A stretch of DNA of 64,000 nt from Octopus vulgaris. Taxonomy: Eukaryota. The notes under the pieces are model-generated. The model was not told where the DNA came from. It made no database searches and saw nothing but the letters and a program-made list of their open reading frames with translations. A program made the translations under genes and the position numbers. Positions 1,180 through 58,830 of the stretch are shown one piece after another (position 1 is the first letter of the stretch; every line of letters begins with the position of its first letter). The stretch spans positions 79,236,001 to 79,300,000 of the forward strand of contig OX597823.1 in the NCBI GenBank assembly GCA_951406725.2. The letters run 5' to 3'.

Positions 1180-2735
1180 CATAGCTGCACCTTCGTTACA
1201 CAAGAAAAGCCATTGCCAAAAAGACTTACTGAAATGCTTTATTATTGATGCCATGCGATGCCCTCATATGACTTTTAAGCCTAGCCAAATTTTTGCACAT
1301 ATATTTTTTGTTGTGGCTGATTCTTGAAAGTAAGTCGTGTTGCAGCGTGTATATTACTTATGAGGTTTTTATAGTAATGGGTGTTGTGTGACATGTTGAT
1401 GTTGCGGTTGTTGTTCTGATGTCGGTACTAAGCGCTCAATATAGAAGTCACTGCCAGGCAGTCACCTCTATATTGTGTTGCATATAACTGGACACTAGTT
1501 TTATGTCTTGTTTTTCTACGATATATTTTTGTTTTGCTTTCTATGGTGGTTTAAGGCTTTTTCATTTGTTGTGTATGTTCTAGAAGTATGGCTTTAGACG
1601 TTGTTCTGTGCTTTGAAGAATTTGGCTATTTCATGTGTATAACAGGTTGCATTTTTGAGTTGCTTCGTAGGATACATCTTTTAGATGTAGCAATAATGAT
1701 TTTATTAAGTATATGTCAAATATATATACAGAAACACCATTAAAGTCGAATTCTGAAAACCTAGGCTCTGCCTTTTACTACCTTTCGTTTCAGACAATTT
1801 TTTTAATAATCTAAAAGTGCTCTTGCTTCCTTCATTAATGCACGCATGCGTAGTGAATGAAATATGCTTCCGAATAAAGTTACGCAATTTTTAGTCAAGT
1901 TTATTTAGCAGATAGGAGTGTTAAGCAGAATGTTTTGTCTTAGGAAGAGTTGTAGTTGGCTCGTTAAGGTATCTGTTTGCTTCTAGTATTGTAAATATAT
2001 GTGTAGAGGAACTGAGACAAAATCTAAAGAAATAAGCTAAAATATAGACAATTAAATAATTCTAGAAAAATCGATAATCAATCAAAAAATCCCTTGCTTT
2101 AATTACTTTCCTCGGTCTTTTGACAAATTGGATCTTAAAACAGAACATTCCAGATTTCATTAAATGTATTGACAAGATTATGTTTATTTAGTGATTTCAC
2201 TTTGGTAATTAGCTATTTAAATTTTACGACAAATGTCTTGAATGAAATTTAAGCCCGACACATTTAGAAGCCATATTAACATAATATTGATTTCCTCAAA
2301 ATAACTCCGTAATTTCTGAGACGAATAATATAATGCATTATTTGGTTGAAGTATCATATTATGCTTCGCTAATTTACCAGATAATTCAATCAACAAATCA
2401 TATGTTGTTCAAATTTTACAGATCAATCGAAGTTTATTAGTAATTTTGCACATAGCTCGAGTATTCTCTGTTAAGGTCCAAATTTTCCACCTAGCAAGCT
2501 ATGCAATTGTGGCCAGTCAGAATAAATTTTATCTCTCTAATCATGAAGGATTTGGAGTTTATGATTCAGTATTTATTGTAGACTGTTCTTAGGTGCTTTC
2601 TTATAAGATACACTTTATAAAATGTTGCACGTGACATAGCATCGTGAGTGGGAAAATATTTTCAGGAAAATGGAAGAGACACCATTAACTGAAAATTGAT
2701 TATTTAACTTAAACTCCGTTGGTTATCATTGCATC

Positions 2736-2786
2736 ACGTTTCTGATGAGGAGCGTGATGCGATGTTTGAAACAATCTGTGAATTGT
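2736..2786 (+). ncRNA. Degenerate hammerhead ribozyme remnant
   Basis: CTGATGA (2742-2748), a wobble-rich stem II and GAAAC (2768-2772). The cleavage triplet is GTG and stem I is weak, so it is probably inactive. Confidence 0.4.
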
Positions 2787-2884
2787 CGTTGTATATATTT
2801 TCATTCGTTATTCTTAACTATTACAAAATATTATTGAAGCTGTTGTTTTCGCATAGATCTAGTTCAATTTTGATTGAAAAAATA

Positions 2885-3450
2885 TTGGGTTGTCCGGAAA
2901 GTTCGTGCCGATTTATGGTAGATTACCTTTCGACTTATTTTAGAACATGGTTGAGTCCATAAAATAGGATTTGACTACACCTCCATTTAGAGCACAGTTT
3001 AAGCTATCTTTTCGTGGAAGAATGTTTATGTTCCTATAACCTGTGTTAATTCTATAACCCTTTAAAATAGAAGATAAGAAAGTTCATTTTCAGCACTTTA
3101 TGCTTTGGGAAGCAGACAAACATTGCTGCAGCTCGGCTGGGATGTGTTACCCCACCCTCTATATTCACCGGATATTGCTCCTTCGGATTTCTACTTATTC
3201 AGGTCTCTGCAGAATAGTCTTAATGGTAAAAATTTCAATTCCTTGGATGATGTAAAAAGATACCTTGATGAATTATTTGCCATGAAACCACTTCAATTCT
3301 GGGAAGAGGGTATTTTCAAGTTAAAGGAAAGATAGAGACGCAATGTGGAACAAAATGGTTCATATTTGGTTGATTAAAAATGTAATGGCAAGTATTTATT
3401 GACCTTTTTCTTTCCTTTAAAAATCGGCACGAACTTTCCGGACAACCCAA
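2885..3450 (+). mobile_element. Internally deleted mariner transposon
   Basis: Perfect 30-bp TIRs (2885-2914 / 3421-3450) flanked by TA. ORF 3105-3335 carries LPHPLYSPDIAPSDFYLF, the mariner YSPDLAPSD motif. Confidence 0.92.
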
Positions 3451-3499
3451 TATATACTCAAAGACATTTTAGTAGCAGTGATTCGTTATTTTGTCTTTT

Positions 3500-3935
3500 G
3501 TTTAAGGCATATCTACGTGGTTATGAATTCGCTTTACGATCAAATCTTTTGGGTTCAATCCCACTACATGTTACCTTAGTCTACTATGATTTACTATAGC
3601 CGACCAATGTTTCGTGAGTAAATTTTATGGACGGAAATTATGAAAGCCCGTGATTTGTGTATATGTATATGTGAGTGCGTGAGTTTCTGCCTATTTGTGT
3701 GTGTGTGTCGGGTGGTGTTTATGCATGTGTATCTCATCGTTTACCTTTGATCCCCATAGCCATTTGAAAACCGGAGCTGGTTATTTTTACGTCCTCGTAA
3801 TTCTCAGGTTCCGCAAAAGTGCCGATAGAGTAAGTACCATATTTAAAAAGTAATCACTGAGGTCATTTTGTTCGATTAAACGTTTCAAGATGGTACCCCA
3901 GCGTGGCTCCAGTCCAATAAGTGAACACAAAACCC
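3500..3935 (+). mobile_element. SINE family A, old degenerate copy
   Basis: Diverged match to the SINE at 17575-18021 (GGGTTCAATCCCACT...CCCAGCGTGGCTCCAGTC). Confidence 0.6.
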
Positions 3936-4130
3936 CAAAAAATAATAATGAAAAGGTGTGTAAAAGGTATGTAGGACTATACTGTCTGGTGTTATTAAAC
4001 AGATCAGGTGAGATCCATTAAAATAGATACGAATTATTACATTTACACAGATTAATATTACTACATATATAGCACACTTAATGTGTAGACATGTTTTCCG
4101 CAAGTTCTTATGCGTAACATTTATAAACGA

Positions 4131-4189
<59 letters not shown>

Positions 4190-4344
4190 CAAATTTACAG
4201 AAAGTATATGACGAAGACAGATGAAGGAACTACAAGTATGTGTATTCGTTTAGCGCTCAGGAAGAATGACAGAGTCTTTGAAGTCTAGAGCCTGCGCTCT
4301 TCGACAAAGAGAAACCGGAGAGAGAAAACGGAGAGAAAACGTAT

Positions 4345-4349
4345 CTATG

Positions 4350-4381
<32 letters not shown>

Positions 4382-4670
4382 CATGCATGCATGTATGTAT
4401 GTATGTATGTATGTATGTATGTATGTATGAATGTATGTATGTATGTATGTATGTATGTATGTATGTATGAATGTATGTATGAATGTATGTATGTATGTAT
4501 GTATGTATGTATGTATGTATGTATGAATGTATGTATGTATGTATGTATGTATGTACGCATGCATGCATGTATGTATGTATGTATGTATGTATGTATGTAT
4601 GTATATATGTATGCATGAATGTATGTATGTATGTATGTATGTACGTATGTATGTATATATATATGTACAT
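4345..4670. repeat. (TATG)n microsatellite
   Basis: Direct reading; source of the YIHT/MYVC pseudo-ORFs. Confidence 0.97.
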
Positions 4671-9277: not shown

Positions 9278-9371
9278 TGCCCCAGGTGAGGAACGAACTA
9301 ATGACCTTCAGATTTCTCTGTTTACGTATTTGATTATGAGACTGACGCGCTGCCTACTGCGCTACTGAGGC
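9278..9371 (-). tRNA. Intron-containing elongator tRNA-Met(CAT), possibly a pseudogene
   Basis: Minus strand reads GCCTCAGTAGCGCAGTAGGCAGCGCGTCAGTCTCATA[21-nt intron, 9314-9334]ATCTGAAGGTCATTAGTTCGTTCCTCACCTGGGGCA. The acceptor stem is intact, the intron is at canonical 37/38 and a TTTT follows. There are two T-stem mismatches. Confidence 0.85.
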
Positions 9372-12552: not shown

Positions 12553-12792
12553 ATATTCTGTTGTATCTGGGGAGAATCATTCTCTTTTGGTAGTTTATAG
12601 TTTAACACACTCACCTGTAAAATTTCCCCTTATTTCTTTTCTATTCTTCTAAATTTTTTCGTTGAAGATGTTGCAAAACGCAATGAAAATTTTAGAAATA
12701 TATAAAAGAAATAACTGGAAATTTTAGCGGTGAGAGTGTTGAATTATAAGGCACCAAAAGAGAATGACTCTCACCAGACACAACAAATTATG
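12553..12792. repeat. Imperfect ~110-bp-arm foldback
   Basis: GGAGAATCATTCTCTTTTGGT...CTCACC..AAATTTCC is mirrored by GGAAATTT..GGTGAG...ACCAAAAGAGAATGACTCTC. Confidence 0.75.
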
Positions 12793-12891: not shown

Positions 12892-13110
12892 TGTGATCTC
12901 TTAAGCACCACCAGCTCAAATATTGTCTCCTCTGTCTTCCCTCCTTGGGATATTTCCTTCACCTTGTTTCCGACGAAGAGCTCCGCTCGAAACGTTAAAC
13001 CCTCCTTCCCTTCTTTCCTGAGCGTCAATAATACTTTAATTGTTCCACGTCCTGCGTTGCTGTGTTTTTTTTTCTCTTTTTTTCTGTGTTTTCTTGTTTG
13101 GATTAACAAT
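12892..13110 (+). mobile_element. Short hammerhead-bearing element, family F
   Basis: Homologous to 16428-16632 and 57183-57340 (both minus strand); abuts (TA)n. Confidence 0.8.
12966..13000 (+). ncRNA. Minimal type I hammerhead ribozyme (C4 variant)
   Basis: Stem I GTTT/AAAC; core CCGACGA+A; stem II GAGC-TCC-GCTC; GAA; palindromic stem III ACGT; GUU cleavage triplet. Confidence 0.65.
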
Positions 13111-13147: not shown

Positions 13148-13212
<65 letters not shown>

Positions 13213-14030
13213 CTTACAGGATACACCGGTCCACAGGGAATTTCAATCCCAAACCTTAAGTCAGTGAGGGATCTGGGTATCGACATGAGTGATGATACCT
13301 CTTTCCAAGTGCACATTGCCAGGATGGCGACAAAGTGCAGACGACTGGCTGGGTGAATCCTAAGAACATTCAGAACCAGAGATAAGGAAACCATGATGGT
13401 CCTCTGGCGGACATTCGTCCTCAGCCGTCTAGATTACTGCTCACAGCTATGGTCACCCACCAGTGTAAAATTAACAGCGGACCTTGAAGCAATCCAGAGA
13501 AGATTCACAAAGAAGATCGTCTCTTTGCAACAGCTCAGCTACTGGGAAAGGTTGAAACAGCTATGACTCTACTCCCTGGAGAGAAGACGGGAGAGGTATG
13601 CAGTAATATATGTCTGGAAGATCCTGGAAGAAATTGTGACAAATTTTGGCATTGTAAGCTACACCAATGCTAGAACGGGACGAAACTGTTTAGTGCCAAA
13701 GATCCCAGCAATGCCATCACGCTTCAGGACCAGCTTCTGCAACAGCCTGGGTTTCAAGGGCCCACAGCTTTTTAATATTCTCCCAAAGAGTCTGAGGAAC
13801 TTGCACAAAGTAGATGTAGCGGTTTTTAAATCAAAGCTGGACATCTTCCCGTCGAGAGTCCCAGATGAACCTACCTCACGGCAAGAGGTGCAAATGAGAG
13901 TAGCTATATCAAACTCCATTCTTCACCAAGTGCCACATATTAGACGAGGTTCTTCGCAATAACAGTGTAGCACAAAACGGCGGTGCATCAGCATGGCCGC
14001 AGTTCTGAGCTGAAACCAGAGAAAAGGAAA
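13213..14030 (+). mobile_element. CR1-like LINE, 5'-truncated (RT C-terminus and 3' UTR), with stop codons
   Basis: VRDLGIDMS...LSRLDYCSQLWSP...LSYWERLKQL*LYSLERRRERY...GPQLFNILP. Confidence 0.9.
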
Positions 14031-14039
14031 AATATGATA

Positions 14040-14198
14040 GAAATATTACATTTCTAAATGTAATATCTCAGAGAGATATAAGCAGTGGTGGCACGATAGA
14101 GCAGTTGTATACTGCCAATTTAACGTGACAGTCCCATAAATAGCGGTGGTGTGATTGCCTTTATGGGACTGTCACGTTAAATTGACAGTATACAACTG
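14040..14198. mobile_element. Hairpin/MITE-like repeat (family shared with 8570-8805)
   Basis: 39-bp inverted arms 14102-14140 / 14160-14198; shares GTTGTATACTGTCAAT, AACGTGACAGT and GCGGTGGTGT with the other copy. Confidence 0.75.
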
Positions 14199-14214
14199 AT
14201 ATATATATATATAT

Positions 14215-14990
14215 ATAATGTAAAGTATAGAAGCCATCTTATCATGGCTAACCACACTGGGGAGAGGGTGTTACTGTAGCTTTATAGCCCCAAGAGATCT
14301 TCGTCTCTAGCTGGCTTTAGACACAATATCTGTGTTCTTGGAGTATTTGCAAAGGGAGGCCATCCCTTCCTCGCAAGCCTGAGTGATACGCTCGAACTAG
14401 TTTCGGGATTGTTGTCCCTCGTCAACAGGTGGTAACCACCAGGTAGCGATGAAAGTGAAGGCTCCTTTGCAAATATATATAAGTTTTTCTAATGGCGTCT
14501 GCCACTGATCTCTTGGGGCTATAAAGCTACAGTAACACCCCCTCCCCAATGTGGTTAGCCATGATAAGATGGCTTCTATACTTTACATTATCGAGCGATT
14601 ACTGTTTCAATCTCATTCTGAGATTTAATTATGCTTATTGTTTGTTTTTCGACATCAGTGACAGACGCCATTAGAAAAACTTATATATATTTGCAAAGGA
14701 GCCTTCACTTTCATCGCTACCTGGTGGTTACCGCCCGTTGACGAGGGACAACAATCCCGAAACTAGTTCGAGCGTATCACTCAGGCTTGCGAGGAAGGGA
14801 TGCCCTCCCTTTGCAAATACTCCAAGGACACAGATATTGTGTCTAAAGCCAGCTAGAGACGAAGATCTCTTGGGGCTATAAAGCTACAGTAACACCCCCT
14901 CTCCAATGTGGTTAGCCATGATAAGATGGCTTCTATACTTTACATTATCGAGCGATTACTGTTTCAATCTTATTCTGAGATTTAATTATG

Positions 14991-14995
<5 letters not shown>
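14215..14995. mobile_element. Retrozyme/Penelope-like non-autonomous element: 357-bp permuted tandem plus 295-bp inverted copy
   Basis: 14507-14638 is repeated at 14864-14995 (period 357). 14215-14509 is the reverse complement of 14654-14948. (TA)n lies on both flanks. Confidence 0.85.
14732..14774 (+). ncRNA. Minimal type I hammerhead ribozyme (U3 variant)
   Basis: Stem I CGCCCG/CGAGCG (1 mismatch); core TTGACGA; stem II GGGA-CAACAA-TCCC; GAA; palindromic ACTAGT; cleavage after 14768. A second copy lies on the minus strand at 14389-14431. Confidence 0.7.
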
Positions 14996-15065
<70 letters not shown>

Positions 15066-16083
15066 GTGTATATATATGGTACTATGGTATGTCTCTGTGT
15101 GTCTCTGTGTGAATGCAGCCGTCATAATGATTGTATATGTTATCGTAGGTTGGAGTTTCGATTCCTGGAGCGACATTACCTTTCCTCTACTTAGAGCCTG
15201 AGATCTGCCTACAATGAAGAACAAGAAGAGAAATGACTAGAGAGGAAGGTATTCTCTGCTAACACATGCAGATTGATTCATATATGTCATTTAACTACAA
15301 AATTAGACCCACTTTTGCAATACTTTCAGTACAACCCTTGTTTGTTTATATCTGTATATATATAACTGTGTGTGCGTGCGTAATATATGTGTGTGAGCGC
15401 GCACACAAGTGTGTGTGTATGTATGTGTGTATGGCTAAAGCTGTTCTGTCGAATCGAAAGGAAATATCTCGGTAAGGGAGAGGAATTGGAAGAAAGAACT
15501 AAACTATGCTTAGTTAAGTTGTTGACAATTTCACCATAAGACTTTTGGGAATTTCTTGCAAGCAGTTATTAGATTTGGCATTTCTAGCTAATTTGTTTCG
15601 CCAAAGATCAAAATCAATCGGCTGTAAACTGTAACACGTTCTTGTGGTAATCAACGGATGTGACGTTCAACAGTTCTCAACAGGTTCGTTGTTATTTTTC
15701 TGTTCGATCCCGTATTGTAATTCAAAAAGATTGTGCACAGTGATATACACACTCAACTAAACACGCTATATATTCTTTCGATCACGTGCGCGCCCCTGTG
15801 TATGTTGTTGACGTCATAAAAATATTTATAACTTTTCGAAAGAATTTGAAATAATCCTTTATGGGAACGGGAGATGAAAGTACATATGACACTATAAGTA
15901 ATAGTAAGCAAATATTGGGTTCACAAAGTATTCATGGATAAAAAATGTTTACGGGAGATTCACAGTCGTACCCCACGAGCCACCTTCACGTTTTTCGATC
16001 CAAACGTGTTTTTTCAACCCAATATTTTCATACTATTATTCATAACATTATATGTGCGTCGAAATCCATTTCCTACATTTACA

Positions 16084-25626: not shown

Positions 25627-25687
25627 GATAACTGAAGAGGTGCCGGAGCAGGTTTCCGCCCCGACATCCGAAACTCGGAGTCTTATT
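25627..25687 (+). ncRNA. Type I hammerhead ribozyme (canonical core)
   Basis: Stem I GATAA/TTATT; CTGAAGA (25632-25638); GC-rich stem II; GAAAC-TCGGA-GTC; cleavage after 25682. Confidence 0.75.
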
Positions 25688-52539: not shown

Positions 52540-53994
52540 ATACTCAATGCTAAAAACAAGATAATAGGTATTAACACTTTAGCTGTCCCAGTTATAAGTT
52601 ACAGCTACAATATCCTTAACTGGATGATAAATGAACTGATCAAAATAGAGAGGAAAACAAGAAAAATAATGACAGGATCTAGGATACATCACCCAAAATC
52701 TGACATAGAAAGACTATATATACAACGTATAGAAGGTGGTAGAGACCTTATACAGCTGGAAAACCACTATAAAATAACCACCATAGGACTGCAAAAATAT
52801 CTACTTCAGAAGGAAGGAAAACTGATACAAATAGCGGCAAAACACGAGCAAAACAAAAAGCTGTTCTCAGTATTTAAGGAAGCTGACAAATACAAACAAG
52901 AAATCATGCCACCTAAAAAATATGAAGAAGAAGAAGGAGAAGAAGAAGAAGAAGAAGAAGAAGAAGAAGAAGAAGAAGAAGAAGAAGAAGAAGAAGAAGA
53001 AGAAGAAGAAGAAGAAGAAGAAGAAGAAGAAGAAGAAGAAGAAGAAGAAGAAGAAGAAGAAGAAGAAGATGATGAAGAAGCAATAATAGCTATAAAACAA
53101 ATGAAATCCAAACTAAAACTAGAACAGCAAAGAACCATGATAAAACGATGACAAGAAAAGCCCCTTCATGGTAAATACTGGACTAAATTAAATGCAAAAG
53201 AAATAGACAAAGAAAAATCCCAGCTCAGGACTCAAAGCAGAGACAGAGGGATTTTTAATTGCAGCACAAGACCAAAGCCTCCCCACCAGAAATTACCAAA
53301 AACATGTAATGAAAAGAAATATAACAAGTAACTGCAGAATATGTGGAGATGGACAAGAAACAATAAATCATATTATCTCTGGCTGCCCAGTCCTGGCTAA
53401 GAAGGAATATATTCACAGACATGACAGAGTTGGAACCTACATACACTGGAAGCTATGCCAACATTATGGAATAACAACAGAAAAAAGATGGTATAGGTAC
53501 ACACCAGAAAAGGTCACAGAAAACGAGAAAGCAACCATACTCTGGGATATGCCGATACACACAGATAGAGAAATTAAGGCCAACAGACCTGATATAGTTG
53601 TCAGAGATCATGAGAAAAAAAATGCTTTCTAATTGATGTATCAATACCGGCAGATGACAACGTGTCTCTAAAAGAAATGGAGAAACTTTCAAAATACAAA
53701 GACCTGGAAATAGAGGTAACCAGAATGTGGAAGCTAAAAACGGAAACAATTCCTATCATAGTATGTGCAATTAGGCATGATAAAAAATATTCAGACAAAT
53801 ACATAACAAAAACACCAGGACTTGCAAACACATATAACATACAGAAAATTGCACTACTAGGCACTGCACACATCCTACGCAAAACACTTTCCACACAATA
53901 ACCATCAGAGCATCACAACAAATTACAGCACATACCCAAGGCACACAGAGCTACGCTCGGTAGTGAAGTGAAAGCAGACTATAAAAAAAAACTA

Positions 53995-57410: not shown

Positions 57411-58367
57411 AGTTAGTTAGTTAGTTAATTTGGCTCAAAAGCAAATAGCAAGGCCATGTAGGGGGACATGGAGTTAATTACAGGGTGGTGTTCATGTAAA
57501 GAGTTCAGACCACTTGAGGTCCAGGGAGGCTTTGAACAAAGCGGTCGTCGGCATCTTCACCATCTCGTCTGGCAGCTTGTTCCACGGATCCGCAACCCGG
57601 ACGGAGAAAGCTCCTCTCCTTCGATTGAGATGAAATCGTCGCAGGTAGAGCTTTTCGGAATGACCCCGCAGCCGACGCTCTGGAGCAGGAGTGAAGAACA
57701 GCTCTTTCGAGAGGTTACACTTTCCGCTTATGATGTTGTGGGCGAGAATGAGATCACCACGGCGGCGGCGTTTTTCAAGAGAATAAAGGTCGAGCGTCCT
57801 CAGCCTTTCTTCGTAGGACAAATTTTTGAGACCATGAACCATGCAGGTAGCCAGCTTTTGGACTCTTTCGAGATGCTGTATGTCTTTGAGGAGATAAGGA
57901 GAAGAGGCTTGAATCCCATAATCCAATATGGGTCTCACCAGCGTGACATAGAGTGGTAGGAATATGGCTGCTGTGAGCATTCCGAATGACCGTCGAATCA
58001 AGAACAGAATTCCGCGTGCTTTGTTAGCAGCACGGTCGCACTGGGCCGAAGGCGAAAAGGAGGAATCCACCAAGATACCCAGGTCCTTTACCTGATCGGT
58101 CCTCTCCAGCAGCAGACGACCCGGCTCGAAATCAAGTTGAATTGCAGGAGTAGAGCCGACAGGCAGATGACAGCACTTTGACACGTTCAGACACAGGTCC
58201 CAATCGTTAGACCACTTCCAAATTTGGTGGAGGCATCGACGGAGATCCTCTATATTACCGCGAGGAGCGACCCGTTTGATATCGTCGGCAAATAGAAGGG
58301 TGTGTTGCGTGAGGTCGTCGGGCAAGTCATTTATGAAGACTAAGAACAACAAGGGCCCAAGCACTGT
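57408..58367 (-). mobile_element. CR1/L2-group LINE, 5'-truncated, open RT C-terminal half
   Basis: VLGPLLFLVFINDLP...LLFADDIK...VKDLGILVD...LVRPILDY...LSYEERLRTLDLYSLEKRRRRGDLI; (TAAC)n tail; inserted in (TA)n. Confidence 0.93.
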
Positions 58368-58413
58368 ATATATATATACATACATATTTATATATATATA
58401 TATATATATATAT

Positions 58414-58830
58414 AGGTGTAGGAGTGGCTGTGTGGTAAGTAGCTTGCTTACCAACCACATTATTCCGGGTTCAGTCCCACTGCGTGCCACCTTGGGCAAG
58501 TGTCTTCTACTATAGACTCGCGCCGACCAAAGCCTTGTCAGTGGATTTGGTAGACGAAAACTGAAACCAACCCGTCGTATATATGTATATTTATATATGT
58601 ATGTGTGTGTGTATATATGTTTGTGTGTCCGTGTTTGTCCCCCTAACATCGCCTGACAACCGACGCTGGTGTGTTTAAGTCCCCCGTAACTTAGCGGTTC
58701 GGCAAAAGAAACCGATAGAATAAGTACAAGGCTTACAATGAATAAGTCCTGTGGTCGATTTGCTCGACTAAAAGCGGTGCCTCAGCATGGCCAAAGTCAA
58801 ATGACTGAAACAAGTAAAAGAATAAAAGAG
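58414..58830 (+). mobile_element. SINE family A, full length
   Basis: High similarity to 17575-18021. Confidence 0.9.

Follow-up and report, generated by a model that had tools for sequence, protein, structure and literature searches.

A dispersed 357-nt hammerhead element with Penelope-type insertion ends in Octopus vulgaris, and a LINE inserted in its superfamily

Mobilisation of animal retrozymes by Penelope-like elements (PLEs) was proposed from co-occurrence and from pseudo-LTR (pLTR) similarity (PMC7229834; bioRxiv 10.64898/2026.07.22.740005). The PLE signature consists of two internal reverse transcriptase (RT) start sites and of a tail left at one end only (PMC11167929; PMC8557442). 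Among the minimal hammerheads of PLEs, the U3-A8 pair is a known natural covariation, and a palindromic helix III implies low-activity action as a dimer (PMC4209133). Known targets of Tx1-clade LINEs include DNA or LTR transposons, snRNA and 5S genes, satellites, and microsatellites (PMC4494074).

The locus at 14215-14995 of the window (the whole stretch of Octopus vulgaris DNA analysed, 64,000 nt) is a non-LTR retrozyme, that is, a non-autonomous Penelope-like element, and not an autonomous PLE. Its parts and immediate neighbours are listed below, with unit positions counted from u1 (14639).

14063..14198, no strand assigned: adjoining two-armed insertion, short, from a distantly related sister family whose unit measures about 325-355 nt (match E 0.0098)
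14199..14216, no strand assigned: left TA run, (AT)9, the target, which would mask any target duplication
14215..14509, minus strand: inverted arm, u16-310, whose outer (3') end is RT start site A
14389..14431, minus strand: the other copy of the hammerhead, carried by the inverted arm and substituted at two positions of stem I (u95, u98), with its core at 14425
14507..14638, plus strand: earlier lap of the direct arm, 5'-truncated (u226-357), with a 3-nt GAT overlap (14507-14509) with the inverted arm
14639..14995, plus strand: full 357-nt unit, 43% GC, non-coding, terminating at start site B
14710..14729, plus strand: target site (u72-91) of a 5.3-kb L1/Tx1-type LINE, empty here, occupied and duplicated in other copies
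14732..14774, plus strand: type I hammerhead of predicted activity (motif and covariation), with stem I 14732-37/14769-74, core UUGACGA 14738-44 (U3·G8), stem II GGGA/UCCC, GAAA, palindromic stem III ACUAGU, U17, and the predicted cut GUU/CGAGCG between 14768 and 14769
14944..14948, plus strand: site A (u306-310), where one of the family's two fixed 3' ends lies
14949..14995, plus strand: 47-nt tail with a small hairpin (predicted fold), ending in site B (u350-357)
14993..15077, no strand assigned: right TA array

The direct repeat (14507-14638 and 14864-14995) is 132 nt long at a spacing of 357, with 2 differences between laps, and the 295-nt inverted arm differs from the direct copy at 8 positions. 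Since the outer end of the inverted arm is site A, the 47-nt tail is absent from this arm. The earlier note had described 1.37 head-to-tail units of period 357, an inverted upstream copy of 295 bp, (TA)n on both sides, one UUGACGA hammerhead per full unit, and no credible coding capacity. This description holds throughout, with UUGACGA...GAAAC cores at 14738 (+) and 14425 (-) and a longest stop-free frame of 68 codons within the insertion. Rfam has no hammerhead at gathering score in the window, and the ribozyme call therefore rests on motif and covariation.

The 357-nt element is inserted at the TA end of the sister-family insertion (14063-14198). The sister hammerhead family has 1666 first-look candidates, and its longer copies carry a canonical CUGAUGA/GUC hammerhead. 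Elsewhere in the window, another inverted pair lies at 12553-12791, and hammerhead-like CCGACGA...GAAAC motifs at 12970 (+) and 16553 (-); the pair and the motifs are probably the ends of a different Penelope-like family. A hammerhead-like CUGAAGA...GAAAC motif with a long stem II is found at 25632 (+). Degenerate LINE RT fragments, presumably CR1/L2-like and RTE-like, occur at 13209-13962, about 58190-58781, and about 52540-52920. An Rfam tRNA-like match with a long variable insert, at 9278-9371 (-), is possibly a SINE head.

The 357-nt unit has 1916 first-look candidates in the 2.8-Gb genome, and its 40 best-scoring loci are 96-100% identical, which places the observation far beyond chance. 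The 20-mer u288-307 has 892 exact matches genome-wide. The unit is a dispersed non-coding family with hundreds of scattered copies. Arm ends were mapped in a position-chosen sample, namely the 70 loci behind the first 100 of the 892 matches (contigs C1 to the start of C3), which admits only copies with the exact 20-mer. In this sample, 52/106 arms end at u304-312 (site A), 44/106 at u346-357 (site B), and 10/106 elsewhere; the two sites, 47 nt apart, together take 96/106. One A arm is paired with one B arm in 26/26 two-armed loci of the sample, and in 19 more among score-chosen loci, with 2 complex. The 5' ends are scattered round the unit. The permuted ends expected for other copies are not borne out: the 3' ends keep to two sites that have no relation to the cut site, and only the 5' ends vary. 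More than one unit is covered by 21/96 A/B arms, the longest reaching 2.5 units, and A and B arms do not differ in length (p 0.97). Of the two-armed insertions outside TA runs, 21/24 stand between target duplications of 11-17 bp, with one mismatch tolerated; duplications of at least 10 bp flank 12/45 single-armed insertions and 3/269 control sites. A TA run is present at one or both ends of 37/106 insertions.

The two fixed 3' ends, the one-arm-per-site rule, and the 11-17-bp duplications are the Penelope 'tail' signature. Further EN+ PLE-type features of the family are 5' truncation, partial tandem, the inverted 5'-truncated arm, and microsatellite bias. A non-coding retrozyme-type hammerhead monomer, copied for more than one lap and with Penelope-type ends, had been proposed from the window, and the fixed 3' ends, tail and inverted arm bear this out. 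In place of the template inversion proposed with it, the inverted arm reflects a separate priming at the alternative site, which in some loci used an RNA of another haplotype. Between arms of one locus, 16/306 positions are discordant, and 15 of the 16 fall in four loci with different haplotypes. Because the arms overlap in sequence and differ in haplotype in these four loci, priming is indicated to have happened twice, in some cases at least on separate RNAs. Such priming would fit the predicted dimer of the PLE protein (PMC11167929). In locus L114, the inversion junction lies exactly at the palindromic stem III of the hammerhead.

The u357/u1 border is crossed by 79/235 arms (154 loci), which run into the previous unit, and 0 run into a Penelope ORF; this agrees with the earlier expectation of no long coding parent. 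The sole shared non-unit upstream flank among 97 is the 5.3-kb LINE. As arms continue from u1 into u357 and the only shared foreign flank is a LINE, the monomer is the whole element. An RT + GIY-YIG ORF between pLTRs is absent from the family, and no PLE ORF is shared up- or downstream in the 154 loci.

The 357-nt element is very probably a PLE-mobilised, non-coding hammerhead monomer. An autonomous PLE of the same genome, with a 781-aa RT/GIY-YIG protein, likewise ends at two points, some 40 nt from each other, and has the U3-A8 core and palindromic stem III in common with the family. Its CxxC zinc motif ahead of the nuclease is a Neptune/Nematis trait (PMC8557442), and its copy at L203:906-1982 and 2245-4587 carries one more frame upstream, of 359 aa, that matches nothing in Pfam. 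This PLE was not accepted as the partner: its likeness in core, palindrome and two-end tail is accompanied by no significant sequence match, the alignment of its end to the unit being no better than shuffles (677/1000). Another PLE, of 775 aa (L205/L217-L226), has different ends. In 76/76 scored copies its protein is 100% identical over 573-574 residues, so that it has been active very recently; a variant hammerhead-like motif in it includes the palindrome AGUACU. Among the 54 PLE loci searched (drawn from 150 scored of 6136 GIY-YIG candidates), the family profiles give 0 matches to pLTRs, and no autonomous PLE with sequence common to the 357-nt unit was found. Two further candidates were discarded: L083, considered as a pLTR-ORF-pLTR partner, is a LINE inserted in a unit, and the unit-like match near the PLE ORF in L205, considered as a partner pLTR, is a separate old insertion beyond the end of that element.

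The hammerhead structure is kept through compensatory changes across families that are 70-97% alike. Covariation of stem I, the 3-8 pair, stem II and stem III was scored across nine variants, where 12/14 pairs change on both sides and 0/500 shuffles score as high; the stem II and palindrome pairs are imposed by variant selection, and the nine rows are related. Ordered by between-copy divergence (8.0, 6.2, 3.3%), the subfamilies run from UUGAUAA/GUC through UUGACAA/GUC and UUGACAA/GUU to UUGACGA/GUU. The last is the type of the window, the most numerous in the sample and the youngest. It has U3 in 62/62 and U17 in 67/68 cases, and lacks the 3-8 Watson-Crick pair and the GUC triplet, both present in older subfamilies. 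U3·G8 and GUU weaken hammerhead cleavage. No published cleavage rates were found for U3·G8 or GUU cores; in the youngest subfamily cleavage may be inefficient, or the element may do without it. The non-T pattern matched 106 times, 95 of the 100 matches listed being of the GUC subfamily.

The hammerhead of the 357-nt family is predicted to act as a dimer. Two complete same-strand hammerheads one unit apart, the arrangement taken as 'active' by Li et al., were sought by exact match and are present in at least 11 loci, the window locus not among them. All 11 of these arms terminate at site A. In 9/11 natural dimers, a fold with both hammerheads formed differs from the minimum by 1.8-7.2 kcal/mol (folding energies, no control set); the single-hammerhead fold is unremarkable (z -0.06). 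The window locus is not supported as a source of circular RNA and is likely a dead-end copy, since each strand holds a single ribozyme and both are predicted to be buried in the long hairpin of a read-through transcript.

What the copies share upstream is the 3' end of a LINE of 5.3 kb with two ORFs (L083:2199-7471 and L285-L347). Its Pfam domains are zf-CCHC (ORF1 zinc knuckle) and, in ORF2, Exo_endo_phos (APE), RVT_1 (RT) and C-terminal zf-RVT; the nearest named homologue of the LINE protein is from Argonauta (55%). A search with its own 3' region, ending 11 nt before the LINE end, gave 167 candidates, of which 40 were scored. Each of the 40 has retrozyme superfamily sequence on one side or both, with a superfamily profile match downstream in 37/40 and upstream in 36/38 with the 5' side seen. 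A target duplication of at least 10 bp surrounds 32/38, and 28 nt typically separate the LINE end from the start of the hammerhead core downstream. Full-length copies number 31, 5'-truncated copies 6, and unresolved copies 3. In 29 full-length loci, the LINE ends are 96-97% alike and the flanks average 81% (65-99%); the two flanks of one locus match (r 0.75), and LINE 5' distance and upstream flank are uncorrelated (r 0.04). LINEs this alike in flanks so diverse, and matching each other, point to independent, site-specific insertions into many subfamilies. As one repeat flanks 40/40 copies and is far more diverse than the LINE, the LINE is target-specific by the test of >20% of flanks in one repeat and independent insertions. 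No LINE targeting a hammerhead or retrozyme element was found in the open-access literature searched.

Some LINE loci are complex. In L332, L337 and L344, the LINE's own 5' junction recurs after it; in L335, L315 and L336, the two sides of the target duplication are of different subfamilies; and in L326:1-700, two junctions of LINE 3' end plus unit face each other across a (TATC)n run.

A scheme combining a 357-nt element, a dimer-type hammerhead, a borrowed PLE RT/endonuclease, and a likely circular template is considered fairly probable. Rare loci with two same-strand hammerheads would be transcribed, and the two palindromic stems III would pair. Double cleavage would free the monomer from u131 round to u130, and a host ligase would close the circle. 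Target strands would then be cut about 11-17 bp apart in AT-rich DNA, as the DNA footprint indicates, and priming would occur inside the RNA, for one strand at site A and for the other at site B, by the putatively borrowed Penelope-like RT/endonuclease. Each cDNA would be of variable length, about a fifth extending beyond one full lap, and the cDNAs would join at short microhomology into 'inverted arm + 1.x tandem', as seen in the footprint. The retrozyme superfamily is, as its copies show, the fixed target of the 5.3-kb L1/Tx1-type LINE, about 28 nt 5' of the hammerhead core. A three-tier chain may be drawn further, in which an autonomous PLE enzyme copies the ribozyme-made 357-nt circle from two internal sites and the LINE parasitises the retrozyme, landing 5' of the hammerhead, riding retrozyme transcription, and being cut out, target-flanked, by the flanking hammerheads. 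If true, this would explain why 31/40 LINE copies are full length; the chain is doubtful.

The earlier note left the template as either a circle or a multimer. A unit-length circular RNA is somewhat favoured, indirectly, and linear RNA is retained as a rival. Laps of one arm agree at 136/138 diagnostic positions, where 43.5 discordant ones are expected, in at least nine haplotypes, whereas with a linear master, a new mutation arising in a single unit would be expected to make laps disagree. No tandem array or chained dimers are present among the two-hammerhead loci found (assembly can collapse arrays), and a satellite master was rejected on the same count. Lap agreement and the lack of an array favour a circular monomer template. 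As predicted circles, natural monomers fold stably, with z of -4.1 and -5.8. Arms pass the predicted cut site in 55/57 cases, with 1 indel in 145 segments there, and 5' ends show no significant pile-up at it (3/106 arms at u130-131; 2/57 arms in a second count). Under the linear reading, the same element and Penelope machinery would use uncleaved read-through RNA of 1.x-2.x-unit loci; template switching, or insertion of the element into its own copies, would restore the number of units, and the hammerhead would be vestigial or regulatory. This is rather unlikely, yet a serious contender. It accords with the fixation of the weakened core in the youngest subfamily, with Poseidon insertion in vitro from uncleaved RNA, which needs no cleavage (PMC11167929), and with the limit of 2.5 units on arm length. 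In Xenopus, 8/9 retrozyme dimers were uncleaved (bioRxiv 10.64898/2026.07.22.740005). Drop-off rises with arm length from 0.24 to about 0.6 per 100 nt, which counts against a circle because an endless template should give a constant rate; the ending of all 11 two-hammerhead arms at site A counts against it as well. Some arms are mosaic (L017); together with arm pairs of different haplotypes, these make template switching between linear RNAs possible. In L127/L303, 1 kb of LINE 3' end inside one arm could be copied read-through RNA, an ambiguous case. Against a linear template stand the compensatory maintenance of the hammerhead, the lack of a fixed 5' end marking a transcription start among the arms, and the lack of any transduced shared 5' flank besides the LINE among 97. 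Contigs assembled from four runs, presumed to be RNA, span most of the unit; three of these runs leave the unique right flank uncovered, and a fourth run, of unrecorded type, covers it. Since contigs cannot show circles, ends, strand or level, they are given no weight as evidence.

Two other readings deny that the monomer is the mobile unit of Penelope-type machinery. On the first, the locus would be a truncated tail-end copy of a long PLE of the ordinary kind and the 357 nt would be its pseudo-LTR, for tail, inversion, partial tandem and target duplication are standard PLE features (PMC11167929; PMC8557442), and minimal hammerheads, U3-A8 cores included, occur in PLE pLTRs (PMC4209133). This is largely refuted and very improbable, as all 79 arms passing u1 continue into u357 with no shared PLE ORF on either side, the one unit-like match near a PLE ORF (L205) lies past the end of that element, and the profiles find no pLTR in the 54 PLE loci; the unit may nevertheless descend from a pLTR. 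That the L1/Tx1-type LINE is the mobiliser, with the unit as its 3' flank or SINE, deserves almost no credence. The LINE 3' end does abut the unit in 37/40 copies, and its distances correlate weakly with those of the downstream flank (r 0.25, p 0.018). However, the LINE sits inside the unit, with a 12-20-bp duplication in 32/38 and the upstream unit part on the 5' side in 36/38; LINE pairs 99% alike are found in flanks 71-80% alike; no unit insertions with LINE-type ends were seen at LINE target sites; and a site-specific LINE cannot account for dispersed two-armed insertions in AT-rich DNA. PLE mobilisation of the non-coding monomer is thus the preferred reading. The octopus insertions themselves bear the mechanistic PLE fingerprint, i.e., two starts, a tail, one arm per site, and sometimes two RNAs per event. 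The family is a substrate for asking whether PLE RT uses circular templates and what the PLE hammerhead does, and the stepwise core weakening in its most successful subfamily provides a ready allelic series for a cleavage assay.

With metazoan non-LTR retrozymes (PMC7229834; Li et al. 2026, bioRxiv 10.64898/2026.07.22.740005), the octopus element shares a non-coding monomer of 150-450 nt and <50% GC, a single type I hammerhead in each unit, partial tandems, a self-paired predicted circle, long target duplications (>4 bp), and co-occurring PLEs. In contrast to them, octopus copies are almost all dispersed 0.1-1.9-mers, with no array and at least 11 two-hammerhead loci, and the core of the octopus lineage, known here from DNA alone, is non-canonical (U3-A8 or U3·G8, GUU). 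The two-site tail and A+B arm rule are not described for retrozymes in PMC7229834 or in the main text of bioRxiv 10.64898/2026.07.22.740005, as far as these sources were covered.

Features in common with EN+ PLEs (Poseidon PAc, Frangieh 2024, PMC11167929; Craig 2021, PMC8557442) include two internal RT starts, a one-end tail, an inverted 5'-truncated arm, partial tandem, AT-rich or (TA)n targets, and a hammerhead upstream of the starts. The octopus element differs in being 357 nt long without an ORF, in having a tail of 47 nt instead of the 30-40 of PLEs, and in that its repeat unit is the entire element. A palindromic helix III, predicted action as a dimer and U3-A8 are shared with the minimal, dimeric PLE hammerheads (Cervera & de la Peña 2014, PMC4209133), whereas the 4-bp helix II and extended helix I of the octopus ribozyme are like those of canonical metazoan type I ribozymes, and its youngest subfamily has shifted further, to U3·G8/GUU. 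Non-autonomous Chlamys PLEs, e.g., MRC1, are likewise PLE-mobilised units forming pLTRs and head-to-tail multimers (PMC8557442). MRC1-type elements, as presented in the parts of that source covered, resemble their autonomous partners at the 3' end and are without canonical hammerheads; the octopus unit is without partner homology among the 54 PLE loci searched.

The LINE resembles Tx1-clade LINEs (Tx1, Tx1-Mar, Keno, Kibi, Koshi; PMC4494074) as a two-ORF APE-RT LINE with one site in a multicopy repeat and a target duplication, a likeness of domains and targeting and not of an RT tree, and differs from them in that its target is a hammerhead retrozyme superfamily. The class of the 357-nt element is already published, and what the octopus family adds is the PLE fingerprint at the level of insertions, the series of ribozymes, and the LINE that targets the superfamily.
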